Shown: positions 885 to 10,532 of the stretch, in pieces | How the letters are laid out: each line of letters starts with the position of its first letter | How positions within the stretch are numbered: the first letter of the stretch is position 1 | Origin: Escherichia coli | Lineage (GTDB): Bacteria > Pseudomonadota > Gammaproteobacteria > Enterobacterales > Enterobacteriaceae | Reading direction: 5' to 3' (one strand) | DNA: 43,657 bases | Assembly (NCBI RefSeq): GCF_003334315.1 | Contig: NZ_QOWR01000041.1 | The notes under the pieces: model-generated | Database searches by the model: none | Told to the model about the DNA's origin: nothing | The model's input: only the letters and a program-made list of their open reading frames with translations | Position numbers and translations under genes: made by a program

Positions 885-3146
885 ATGTCGCAACATAACG
901 AAAAGAACCCACATCAGCACCAGTCACCACTACACGATTCCAGCGAAGCGAAACCGGGGATGGACTCACTGGCACCTGAGGACGGATCTCATCGTCCAGC
1001 GGCTGAACCAACACCGCCAGGTGCACAACCTACCGCCCCTGGGAGCCTGAAAGCCCCTGATACACGTAACGAAAAACTTAATTCTCTGGAAGACGTACGC
1101 AAAGGCAGTGAAAATTATGCGCTGACCACTAATCAGGGCGTGCGCATCGCCGATGATCAAAACTCACTGCGTGCCGGTAACCGTGGTCCAACGCTGCTGG
1201 AAGATTTTATTCTGCGCGAGAAAATCACCCACTTTGACCATGAGCGCATCCCGGAACGTATTGTTCATGCACGCGGATCAGCAGCTCACGGTTATTTCCA
1301 GCCATATAAAAGCTTAAGCGATATCACCAAAGCGGATTTCCTCTCAGATCCGAACAAAATCACCCCAGTATTTGTTAGGTTCTCTACCGTTCAGGGTGGC
1401 GCTGGCTCTGCCGATACCGTGCGTGATATCCGTGGTTTTGCCACCAAGTTCTATACTGAAGAGGGTATTTTTGACCTCGTTGGCAATAACACGCCAATCT
1501 TCTTTATCCAGGATGCGCATAAATTCCCCGATTTTGTTCATGCGGTAAAACCAGAACCGCACTGGGCAATTCCACAAGGGCAAAGTGCCCACGATACTTT
1601 CTGGGATTATGTTTCTCTGCAACCTGAAACTCTGCACAACGTGATGTGGGCGATGTCGGATCGCGGCATCCCCCGCAGTTACCGCACCATGGAAGGCTTC
1701 GGTATTCACACCTTCCGCCTGATTAATGCCGAAGGGAAGGCAACGTTTGTACGTTTCCACTGGAAACCACTGGCAGGTAAAGCCTCACTCGTTTGGGATG
1801 AAGCACAAAAACTCACCGGACGTGACCCGGACTTCCACCGCCGCGAGTTGTGGGAAGCCATTGAAGCAGGCGATTTTCCGGAATACGAACTGGGCTTCCA
1901 GTTGATTCCTGAAGAAGATGAATTCAAGTTCGACTTCGATCTTCTCGATCCAACCAAACTTATCCCGGAAGAACTGGTGCCCGTTCAGCGTGTCGGCAAA
2001 ATGGTGCTCAATCGCAACCCGGATAACTTCTTTGCCGAAAACGAACAAGCAGCATTCCATCCAGGTCATATTGTTCCTGGTCTGGACTTCACCAACGATC
2101 CGCTGTTGCAGGGGCGTTTATTCTCCTATACCGATACACAAATCAGTCGTCTTGGCGGGCCAAATTTCCATGAGATTCCGATTAACCGTCCGACCTGCCC
2201 TTACCATAATTTCCAGCGTGACGGCATGCATCGCATGGGGATCGACACTAACCCGGCTAATTACGAACCGAACTCGATTAACGATAACTGGCCGCGCGAA
2301 ACACCGCCGGGGCCGAAACGCGGCGGTTTTGAATCATACCAGGAGCGCGTGGAAGGCAATAAAGTTCGCGAGCGCAGCCCATCGTTTGGCGAATATTATT
2401 CCCATCCGCGTCTGTTCTGGCTAAGTCAGACGCCATTTGAGCAGCGCCATATTGTCGATGGTTTCAGTTTTGAGTTAAGCAAAGTCGTTCGTCCGTATAT
2501 TCGTGAGCGCGTTGTTGACCAGCTGGCGCATATTGATCTCACTCTGGCCCAGGCGGTGGCGAAAAATCTCGGTATCGAACTGACTGACGACCAGCTGAAT
2601 ATCACCCCACCTCCGGACGTCAACGGTCTGAAAAAGGATCCATCCTTAAGTTTGTACGCCATTCCTGACGGTGATGTGAAAGGTCGCGTGGTAGCGATTT
2701 TACTTAATGATGAAGTGAGATCGGCAGACCTTCTGGCCATTCTCAAGGCGCTGAAGGCCAAAGGCGTTCATGCCAAACTGCTCTACTCCCGAATGGGTGA
2801 AGTGACTGCGGATGACGGTACGGTGTTGCCTATAGCCGCTACCTTTGCCGGTGCACCTTCGCTGACGGTCGATGCGGTCATTGTCCCTTGCGGCAATATC
2901 GCGGATATCGCTGACAACGGCGATGCCAACTACTACCTGATGGAAGCCTACAAACACCTTAAACCGATTGCGCTGGCGGGTGACGCGCGCAAGTTTAAAG
3001 CAACAATCAAGGTCGCTGACCAGGGTGAAGAAGGGATTGTGGAAGCTGACAGCGCTGACGGTAGTTTTATGGATGAACTGCTAACGCTGATGGCAGCACA
3101 CCGCGTGTGGTCACGCATTCCTAAGATTGACAAAATTCCTGCCTGA
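885..3146 (+). CDS. katE: Catalase HPII (large-subunit monofunctional catalase)
   Basis: 753-aa ORF with N-terminus [20 protein letters not shown] and catalase core motifs (RERIPERVVHA-like, GSAAHGYF); length matches KatE. Confidence 0.97.
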
Positions 3147-3149
3147 TGG

Positions 3150-3173
3150 GAGGCGGCGCAATTGCGCCGCCTC
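3150..3173 (+). other. 24-nt perfect palindrome GAGGCGGCGCAATTGCGCCGCCTC, 4 nt after the katE stop (possible terminator or REP-like hairpin)
   Basis: Perfect 10-bp stem with AATT loop read directly from the sequence; no strong T-run follows, so intrinsic-terminator status is uncertain. Confidence 0.4.
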
Positions 3174-3202
3174 AAATGATTTACATAGTGCGCTTTGTTT
3201 AT

Positions 3203-3391
3203 GCCGGATGCGGCGTGAACGCCTTATCCGGCCTACAAAACTGTGCAAATTCAATATATTGCAGGAAACACGTAGGCCTGATAAGCGAAGCGCATCAGGC
3301 AGTTTTGCGTTTGTCAGCAGTCTCAAGCGGCGCAGTTACGCCGCCTTTGTAGGAATTAATCGCCGGATGCAAGGTTCACGCCGCATCTGGC
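3203..3391. repeat. BIME/REP cluster (REP - spacer with tgcaaattcaatatattgcagg - REP, plus a third REP-like unit)
   Basis: GCCGGATGCGGCGTGAACGCCTTATCCGGCCTAC-type REP palindromes at about 3203-3236, 3272-3302 and 3362-3391, typical of enterobacterial intergenic repeats. Confidence 0.8.
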
Positions 3392-3403
3392 AAACATCCT
3401 CAC

Positions 3404-4165
<762 letters not shown>

Positions 4166-9475: not shown

Positions 9476-10303
9476 ATGACATTGCAACAACAAATAATAA
9501 AGGCGCTGGGCGCAAAACCGCAGATTAATGCTGAAGAGGAAATTCGTCGTAGTGTCGATTTTCTGAAAAGCTACCTGCAAACTTATCCGTTCATTAAATC
9601 ACTGGTGCTCGGGATCAGCGGCGGTCAGGACTCCACGCTTGCCGGAAAGCTGTGCCAGATGGCGATTAATGAGCTGCGCCTGGAAACCGGCAACGAATCA
9701 CTGCAATTTATTGCCGTACGCCTGCCCTATGGTGTTCAGGCCGACGAACAAGATTGCCAGGATGCCATTGCCTTTATTCAACCGGATCGCGTATTAACCG
9801 TTAATATCAAGGGCGCGGTATTGGCCAGCGAACAGGCATTGCGGGAAGCAGGCATTGAACTGAGCGATTTTGTCCGTGGCAATGAAAAAGCGCGTGAGCG
9901 GATGAAAGCACAATATAGCATTGCGGGTATGACCAGCGGTGTCGTGGTGGGCACCGATCATGCAGCAGAAGCCATTACCGGATTCTTCACTAAATATGGT
10001 GACGGCGGTACGGACATTAATCCGCTGTATCGTCTCAACAAACGTCAGGGTAAACAGTTACTGGCGGCATTAGCTTGCCCGGAACACCTTTATAAGAAAG
10101 CGCCAACGGCCGATCTGGAAGATGATCGCCCTTCTCTGCCAGATGAAGTGGCACTCGGCGTGACCTATGACAATATCGACGACTATCTGGAAGGGAAAAA
10201 CGTACCTCAACAGGTCGCCAGAACAATAGAGAACTGGTATCTGAAAACCGAACATAAACGCCGTCCGCCAATTACCGTTTTCGATGATTTCTGGAAAAAG
10301 TAA
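9476..10303 (+). CDS. nadE: NH3-dependent NAD+ synthetase
   Basis: 275-aa [34 protein letters not shown]… with the SGGQDS PP-loop motif. Confidence 0.95.
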
Positions 10304-10348
10304 TAATTTGCACATATTGGATTGTGCGAAAAAGAGTAATTTGTTCAC

Positions 10349-10447
10349 GCCGGATGCGGCGTGAACGCCTTATTCGACCTATAAAACTATGCAAATTCAA
10401 TACATTGCAGGAGTCGAATAGGCCTGACAGGCGTAGCACGTCAGACG
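10349..10447. repeat. REP - spacer - REP unit (RIP/BIME-like) between nadE and cho
   Basis: CGCCGGATGCGGCGTGAACGCCTTATTCGACC … tgcaaattcaatacattgcagg … GGCCTGACAGGCGTAGCACGTCAGACG; near-identical in architecture to the unit at 3203-3302. Confidence 0.75.
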
Positions 10448-10532
10448 GTGTAACCTTTGTCATCGACCCGCCTCTTTTTTAATCGCTTCCCGCCTGTTAC
10501 ACTGGATAGATAACCAGCATTCGGAGTCAACA

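Follow-up and report, generated by a model that had tools for sequence, protein, structure and literature searches.

The locus considered here raises a simple question: why does a perfect palindrome of 24 nucleotides, with a GC-rich stem like that of an intrinsic terminator and no U-run behind it, stand directly 3' of katE, the gene of catalase HPII, in Escherichia coli? The stretch analysed (the window, 43,657 nucleotides in full) is E. coli K-12, and its part from 3090 to 3430, between katE and the convergent gene chbG, is 100% identical to strain MG1655. The window coordinate equals the genome coordinate minus 1812982, as verified on NC_000913.3, where katE lies at 1813867..1816128 and chbG at 1816386..1817135 on the minus strand. 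The answer that we consider probable is that the palindrome is the katE-proximal copy of an ancestral terminator-type stem-loop, duplicated around an inserted bacterial interspersed mosaic element of type 1 (BIME-1), and that this left copy is now an internal hairpin of the katE 3' untranslated region (UTR).

The palindrome occupies 3150-3173 (GAGGCGGCGCAATTGCGCCGCCTC) and is perfect in 24 of 24 positions, its arms (3150-3161 and 3162-3173) being 100% complementary in the repeat search. Three bases, TGG, separate it from the katE stop codon (TGA, 3144-3146), and it starts at the fourth base past the stop. As RNA it folds into a 10-bp stem with nine G-C pairs and one A-U pair, closed by an AAUU loop. 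The minimum free energy (MFE), a calculation suggested in a first-pass annotation of this DNA, is -22.0 kcal/mol against -7.4 +/- 2.0 kcal/mol in dinucleotide shuffles (z = -7.3), and none of the 200 shuffles equalled it; the perfect dyad, the GC-rich 10-bp stem and the AATT loop which that annotation had described are borne out by sequence and fold. Chance is excluded as the source of the palindrome: with up to three mismatches allowed its sequence matches once in the window (0.00 expected from 100 shuffles), the naive expectation for any 24-nt palindrome there is about 43657/4^12 = 0.003, and the next-longest perfect palindromes in the 43.6 kb have 16 and 14 nt. The 16-nt one (TGCCCAACGTTGGGCA, 475-490) lies upstream of katE, inside a minus-strand open reading frame (439-702). 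In the fold of the whole 260-nt katE 3' UTR (-116.9 kcal/mol, z = -6.6) the palindrome stays an autonomous local hairpin, in the MFE and the centroid structures alike.

Directly 3' of the stem there is no U-run on either strand (CAAAUGAUUUACAU / CAAAUGAU on the plus strand, CCAUCAGGCAGG / CCAUCAGG on the minus strand), and a consensus scan of 2800-3700 returned 0 terminator-like and 0 promoter-like sites, in agreement with the earlier statement that this is not a textbook intrinsic terminator. What the first-pass annotation did not contain is a second copy of the hairpin, recovered by the repeat search as GCGGCGCAGTTACGCCGCCT at 3327-3346, which is 90% identical to 3153-3172, lies 174 bp downstream and has the missing U-run behind it. 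Between the two copies lies a BIME-1 with its repetitive extragenic palindromic (REP) sequences and its linker of the type that binds integration host factor (IHF), and the region is composed as follows.

885..3146, plus strand: katE (catalase HPII) coding sequence, with its TGA at 3144-3146 (open reading frame list, MG1655 annotation).
3150..3173, no strand assigned: perfect 24-nt palindrome, of which 3151-3172 is the left stem-loop copy (repeat search, fold, comparison of BIME-1 copies).
3173..3324, plus strand: BIME-1 or RIP unit of 152 bp (repeat and REP searches, Rfam, alignment with 10 copies, nhmmer).
3203-3236: REP Y of the katE BIME-1 (repeat and REP searches).
3237-3271: IHF-type L linker of the katE BIME-1, containing TGCAAATTCAATATATTGCA (repeat search, Rfam).
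3272-3300: REP Z1 of the katE BIME-1 (repeat and REP searches).
3325..3346, no strand assigned: right stem-loop copy AAGCGGCGCAGTTACGCCGCCT, matching the left copy in 19/22 positions and adjoining the right end of the BIME-1.
3362..3392, plus strand: third, solitary REP (REP3), GCCGGATGCAAGGTTCACGCCGCATCTGGC (repeat and consensus searches).
3396, plus strand: the sole curated plus-strand Term-seq 3' end in the katE-chbG spacer (PMC7815308, Supplementary file 1).
3404..4153, minus strand: chbG (chitooligosaccharide deacetylase), convergent with katE (open reading frame list, MG1655 comparison).

The two direct repeats, 3151-3172 and 3325-3346, adjoin both ends of the 152-bp unit at 3173-3324. 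Base 3173 (C), the last letter of the palindrome, is better assigned to the BIME-1 as the first base of its end, as a comparison with 13 other BIME-1 copies indicates. The unit is bounded by an imperfect terminal inverted repeat (CAAATGATTTACATAGTGCGC... / ...TTTGTCAGCAGTCTC) and is otherwise typical of BIME-1 / RIP / RIB elements, with one copy of the unit, REPs of the Y and Z1 kinds, and an L linker that is conserved and is the part that binds IHF (Ton-Hoang 2012). The linker carries the only Rfam match above threshold (ES036/CssrF, 3237-3279, 55.5 bits against a gathering score of 37.6). The right copy folds at -15.4 kcal/mol on the minus strand and -12.8 kcal/mol on the plus strand, and it is followed by a residual T-tract, TTTGT at 3346-3350, which overlaps its last base. 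The palindrome lacks a U-run because the BIME-1 lies between the two copies, with the T-tract now behind the right one. Long-range pairing of the palindrome hairpin with its second copy was rejected, since the full 3' UTR fold keeps the hairpin local. REP Y (3203-3232) and REP3 (3362-3392) are 81% complementary over 31 nt, and the thermodynamic 3' UTR fold pairs the two across about 130 nt, their own hairpins not being formed.

The palindrome itself is not one of the REPs. REPs are imperfect palindromes of 35-40 nt. It does not match their consensus (GCC[G/T]GATGCG[G/A]CG..., with a GTAG/CTAC head), whereas true REPs were found at 3203, 3220, 3362 and 3379; repeat, Rfam and consensus searches agree on the downstream REP cluster that the first reading had reported. 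The sole consensus match near the palindrome, at 3141-3153, has two mismatches and is spurious. An Rfam match of naRNA4 over the palindrome reaches 39.7 bits against a gathering score of 59.5; this is below threshold, and the alignment is one of structure only, driven by the neighbouring REP. Even at permissive thresholds Rfam has no family for the hairpin. REPs exist in hundreds of dispersed copies per genome, and the palindrome is found at a single locus, the two "places" of its 30-mer in each genome being the two strands of one palindrome. The idea of a dispersed repeat or a REP variant was discarded on these two grounds, the lack of the REP consensus and the single locus.

The arrangement at katE recurs elsewhere. 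A second locus, tkt/prohibitin, gave the first hint of duplication, with AAGGGCCGCAAATGCGGCCCTT, a BIME-1, AAGGGCCGCGAAAGCGGCCCTT and then TTTTTT. BIME-1 copies were then sought as a class: the linker motif gathered 120 loci from metagenome contigs, and an nhmmer census of the sampled DNA gave 14 distinct full-length copies. Full-length units measure 151-153 bp and share a left end CAGATTGTTGACAAAGTGCGC... and a right end ...TTTGTCATCAGTCTC, which form an imperfect terminal inverted repeat of ~15 bp conserved in the 11 aligned copies (katE and 10 others). In eight of the 14 copies a hairpin of 19-24 bp, peculiar to the locus, is directly repeated within 0-4 bases of both ends, and a ninth has a degenerate duplication. 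Flank-to-flank alignment scores were 9-22, against 5.4 +/- 1.5 in cross-locus controls. The other copies have a one-sided hairpin or only 3-4 repeated bases, such as GTAT at dppA. Hairpin duplication around BIME-1 is accordingly frequent and not obligatory. Where runs exist, the left hairpin copy retains the A-run and the right copy the T-run; a rule of orientation, by which the T-run would lie on the Z1 side every time, agrees with all informative loci, but these number only about three and we do not claim the rule.

Some further copies may be recorded. The window has a second BIME-1 at 10315-10470, after an open reading frame ending at 10303, with the linker TGCAAATTCAATACATTGCA at 10390-10409; its left end is degenerate, it has no duplicated hairpin, and its right flank begins CCGCCTCTTTTTT, which resembles the 3' half of a terminator without the 5' half. 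The metagenome contig JFBN01300879.1 has two full-length BIME-1, one with a clear hairpin duplication (AACGAGGGGGAAGCTCCTCGTTT / AACGAGGAGAAACGCTCCTCGTTT) and the other with a decayed one (AGGCACCCTTCGCGGTGCCT / AACGCACCTTCACAGCACCT).

If the duplication arose by insertion, alleles without the BIME-1 should have a single hairpin, and such alleles exist. At tkt, a lone canonical terminator, AAGGGCCGCGAAAGCGGCCCTTTTTT, stands in several diverged haplotypes at the place of the filled form of other strains, a finding that supports insertion with duplication. For katE, the empty junction (...GCGCCGCCT/TTGTAGG..., the slash marking the join) was predicted from the window sequence and then searched; it was found uninterrupted and with 100% identity in at least two O9:H10 genomes, where TTTGTAGG comes directly after the hairpin. 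We do not claim these two genomes as ancestral. An empty site for the acnB-side locus (L153) was not found, the flank there not being E. coli-like. The loop bases leave the polarity ambiguous, being CAACTG in the outgroup, CAATTG in most K-12-type genomes, CAGTTG in a minority and CAGTTA in the right copy.

These alleles bear on a different explanation, in which the two hairpins are independent terminators of katE and chbG that resemble each other through common terminator ancestry or gene conversion. Convergent genes often have one hairpin each, GC-rich stems like GCGGCGC are common, and cross-locus control scores occasionally reach 11-12. Yet the copies adjoin the ends of the BIME-1 to the base, as they do at 7-8 other loci, each with a different locus-specific hairpin; moreover, the empty alleles have exactly one hairpin, and so does the katE/chbG junction of the outgroup genera. 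We therefore regard two independent hairpins as very unlikely, and duplication on insertion as the better account of the pair.

That the stem-loop is older than the BIME-1 next to it is suggested by other Enterobacteriaceae. The katE loci of 80 enterobacterial species were fetched and 34 of them examined, and in almost all of the 34 a strong hairpin lies within about 20 nt past the katE stop. In Salmonella and many Citrobacter the sequence directly past the stop is (A)5-8-TGCGGCGCA-loop-TGCGCCGCA-AACTCAGG, clearly, as judged from sequence, the ortholog of the K-12 palindrome hairpin. This would be a canonical intrinsic terminator of chbG, because for the minus-strand gene the A-run reads as a U-run. 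On the strength of these alignments we read the stem-loop as an ancestral feature of the convergent katE/chbG junction that Escherichia, Salmonella and Citrobacter share.

Among 14 aligned versions of the hairpin the core GCGGCGC/GCGCCGC is unchanged in 13, and the loops, of 3-6 nt, vary freely in sequence and length; the centres seen across alleles and species include AATT, AGTT, AACT, TTCT, TAAT, CCCG and others. Two stem pairs show compensatory changes, one from C-G to U-A in Escherichia sp. MOD1-EC7003 (GGTGGCGC...GCGCCACC) and the other, the outer pair, between U-A and G-C. The pattern of variation points to structure, not a duplex recognition sequence, as what is constrained in the katE hairpin. 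A conservation check across katE loci, also proposed in the first-pass annotation, was thus answered in two parts, the stem core being kept and the perfect palindrome being specific to an allele. The same observations speak to the proposal that the duplex is bound by a dimeric protein, whether a regulator, a restriction or methylation enzyme, or a recombinase. A perfect 24-bp dyad with CAATTG at its centre does have the classical form of a dimer site, and protein binding had been suggested at the outset. An operator would be expected to keep its contact bases and to lie near a regulated promoter; here the central bases and the loop length vary across alleles and species, the stem covaries, there is a single locus per genome, and the site lies between two converging stop codons with no promoter-like site predicted in 2800-3700. 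We give this proposal hardly any credence, and retain that of a duplicated terminator-type stem-loop.

Within E. coli, the 30-mer with its K-12-type flank is present in 2170 of 5426 complete genomes, at one locus only. Of these carriers 2072 are at least 99% identical across the 30-mer and about 4% have one mismatch; the variant alleles inspected (loci L006 and L189) have a CAGTTG centre and so are not perfect palindromes. The perfect state belongs to the commonest allele of the K-12 type. In the remaining ~3250 genomes, including O157:H7, O104:H4 and ST131, the alignment to K-12 ends just before the katE stop, and three of them that were inspected (L003, L004, L005) have an unrelated 46-nt spacer with a different hairpin, AAGGTCACGTCCCCTGGGGAGTGACCTT. 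The K-12-type spacer has 257 nt, with the ancestral-type hairpin, the BIME-1 and a REP, against 46 nt and an unrelated hairpin in the O157/ST131 type. The last two katE codons differ synonymously between the two haplotypes, and both stops differ as well (TGA/TGA versus TAA/TAA), which suggests replacement by recombination.

Two rearrangements were met in this survey. In E. coli DEC9B (NZ_CP074760.1; 770-1375 of the sampled locus L002) an IS621, an element of the IS110 family with an annotated transposase, interrupts the katE-side BIME-1 right after the linker motif ...ATTGCAG, at about window position 3263; IS621 is known to insert into REPs. In E. coli Z1323CEC0007 (L087), positions 381-460 correspond to window 3341-3380 and contain a 40-bp tandem duplication (CGCCGCCTTTGTAGGAATTAATCGCCGGATGCAAGGTTCA twice) lying between the right copy and REP3; it is bounded by short CACGCCGC(C/A) repeats and is present in at least eight genomes (H73-H80). 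The katE spacer is prone to slippage and rearranges at short CGCCGCC repeats.

The first-pass annotation had supposed that the hairpin may stabilise the 3' end of katE mRNA, an idea at odds with read-through into the REP cluster with no end at the hairpin; it is this read-through that public Term-seq data display. In Adams et al. 2021 (PMC7815308, Supplementary file 1) the spacer from katE to chbG has a single listed 3' end, at 1816378 on the plus strand, in the sheet for LB at OD600 2.0. This is window position 3396, 4 nt past REP3 and 223 nt beyond the palindrome, with the context TTTGTAGG...GGCAAAC/ATCC (the slash standing at the end; the printed 61-nt context is window 3346-3406). Near 1816155-1816165, where the palindrome lies, or elsewhere in 18161xx-18162xx, no 3' end is listed in the three conditions of this one thresholded data set, and the TERMITe and TRS supplements have no E. 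coli katE entry. To reach the mapped end, katE transcripts would have to read through the palindrome, the BIME-1, the second hairpin and REP3. An end 4 nt past a REP is the pattern expected if an exonuclease trims the transcript back to the REP. REPs have a dual role as terminators and stabilisers, and REP-type hairpins are established exonuclease barriers.

By its form the palindrome resembles the intrinsic or bidirectional terminators of convergent junctions, having a GC-rich 10-bp stem and a 4-nt loop directly past a stop codon, and the katE empty allele, both as reconstructed and as observed, is such a hairpin followed by TTTGT. The copy at 3150-3173 differs from them, with no U-rich tract (about five or more U in 8 nt) directly 3' of its stem on either strand and, in the Term-seq data set above, no RNA 3' end a few nt past the stem. 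It is terminator-like in its stem, but fails these two defining tests in its present context. It also resembles the REP-type 3' stem-loops that stop exonucleases or aid Rho-dependent termination, being a stronger hairpin of like kind in the same UTR; it differs in that the mapped katE end is at REP3 and in that it is unique, with no other family member, and lacks the GTAG/CTAC head.

Could the palindrome nevertheless be a working transcript-end element of katE, either a terminator without U-run or an exonuclease-stop stem-loop with the mature mRNA end just past it? Its stability, the way it stays local when the 3' UTR is folded, the recurrence of a strong hairpin behind katE in almost every enterobacterial locus examined, and the precedent of REP-type barriers would all fit. 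The data fit less well: in the condition with signal on the katE strand no end is found at the palindrome and the end lies after REP3, the U-tract is absent on both strands, and with the stem only 3 nt past the stop a terminating or trailing ribosome would hold its 5' arm open as RNA polymerase passes. This explanation appears unlikely to us, and the palindrome would not be where katE transcripts end. A transcript that crosses a BIME-1 and ends at a distal hairpin with a U-run is exemplified by FliX, the annotated 3'-UTR small RNA of fliC (MG1655 2001912-2002106, minus strand; 1912-2106 of the sampled locus L216), which almost exactly spans a full-length BIME-1 (the nhmmer match begins at 2001942) and ends at the terminator CTTCCCCGCCACCGGCGGGGTTTTTTT adjoining the element.

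The short distance to the stop codon suggests another role. Hairpins or REPs within 15 nt of a stop codon interfere with terminating ribosomes, according to the part of PMC12306157 that cites work on this, and the main role of the katE hairpin might thus be translational, slowing katE termination and ribosome release and so tuning the output of HPII; the hairpin is 3 nt from the stop, and its stability exceeds that of a REP. In other genera and in the alternative haplotype of E. coli, however, hairpins lie 5-12 nt from the stop with no obvious common spacing, and the compact convergent arrangement of the genes would alone account for the proximity. As the main role we consider this quite unlikely. 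As a side effect in a duplicated terminator hairpin it may still occur: because the hairpin starts 3 nt past the UGA, a terminating ribosome would have to open about 6 of its 10 pairs, which could lower the efficiency of termination or recycling. The left copy today would be a transcribed internal hairpin of a long, highly structured katE 3' UTR, and it may serve in a backup role as the last barrier to 3'-to-5' exonucleases before the coding sequence.

As to how the duplication came about, the 152-bp BIME-1 would have inserted exactly at the 3' base of the ancestral stem in the K-12-type haplotype. We propose that the target, an extruded hairpin or cruciform, was cut at its two bases on opposite strands, and that the BIME-1 was joined and the gaps filled in, which would leave a full copy of the palindrome on each end. 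With opposite-strand cuts at the hairpin bases, the length of the repeat would follow the palindrome (19-24 bp) and would not be fixed. Whether this holds for the family is more doubtful; tentatively, BIME-1 (RIP) may be discrete 152-bp units, similar to miniature inverted-repeat transposable elements (MITEs), that enter at the base of a terminator hairpin or cruciform once it is extruded and duplicate the whole stem-loop, the repeat (19-24 bp) being defined by structure, the proximal copy losing the U-tract and the distal one keeping it.

The resemblance to the target-site duplications of MITEs and insertion sequences (IS) lies in locus-specific direct repeats that adjoin an element with terminal inverted repeats, and in empty sites with a single copy. 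The differences are that the BIME-1 repeat tracks the local palindrome at 19-24 bp, against a fixed 2-14 bp, that about 40% of BIME-1 copies have no repeat or one of 3-4 bp, and that no transposase is linked to the duplication. RAYT, the enzyme associated with REPs, is of the Y1 HUH type, and duplications of this sort are not produced by its relatives of the IS200/IS605 group. Bacterial group II introns of class C, which insert after intrinsic terminators, are retroelements with their own reverse transcriptase and are not known to duplicate the hairpin. Their insertion, like that of BIME-1, falls directly 3' of the stem of a terminator and ahead of its T-run; they differ from BIME-1 in the points just named, BIME-1 encoding nothing.

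The anatomy, the orthology, the recurrence at independent loci, the empty alleles and the lack of a mapped 3' end at the palindrome we take as established, and the origin of the palindrome as one half of a BIME-1-duplicated terminator hairpin is well supported. Several points weigh against the duplication account, or against parts of it. Duplication is seen in only 8-9 of 14 BIME-1 copies, and in 250 kb of MG1655 sampled without bias there were two full-length BIME-1, in the dppA and fliC 3' regions and both already among the 14, neither of them with a duplicated hairpin. The katE empty alleles come from only two near-clonal genomes whose flanks are identical to K-12; an exact deletion from one repeat to the other is as possible for them as the ancestral state, in a spacer that does rearrange at short CGCCGCC repeats, as the 40-bp tandem duplication of L087 demonstrates. 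For the lack of a 3' end at the hairpin there is a single thresholded data set with three conditions, which leaves room for a minor decay intermediate there. Finally, we infer both the transposition of BIME-1 and the proposed cleavage from their footprint in the sequence, and the roles of the left copy as an exonuclease barrier and in ribosome interference are likewise ones that we infer.

It has been described, in the part of PMC1187871 that cites Bachellier 1997, that BIME-1 measures about 140 bp and is present or absent as a whole among isolates, and a 2026 preprint states that the mechanism of REP insertion in vivo is not fully established. Hairpin duplication around BIME-1 is not mentioned in Nunvar 2010, Ton-Hoang 2012, Bertels & Rainey 2011 (a commentary), Delihas 2011, Petrillo 2008, Chiapello 2005, RepRanger 2025 or Harris 2026, a comparison outside which key primary papers of the 1990s lie; likewise, no description of the ~15-bp terminal inverted repeats of the 152-bp unit or of its preference for the 3' base of a terminator stem was found in these works. 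The pattern is possibly, not certainly, new.

Taken alone, the palindrome is real but of an ordinary kind, a terminator-type hairpin in the bacterial genome that has been studied best. More is learnt from its surroundings at katE, in that a BIME-1 would have come in as one discrete unit precisely where a terminator stem stood, with duplication of the stem-loop, the same pattern being present at more than half of the sampled copies. If this is true and undescribed, the pattern would record in sequence the way in which REP/BIME elements insert and would give a testable lead on BIME mobility, and it would account for the twin hairpins around BIMEs in many E. coli 3' UTRs as well as for orphan GC-rich hairpins without a U-run. 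At katE, presence or absence of the BIME-1 makes the difference between a single hairpin with a T-tract and two hairpins with three REPs and an end about 250 nt past the stop, and this difference in 3' UTR architecture is a plausible source of strain-to-strain differences in the expression of katE and chbG.

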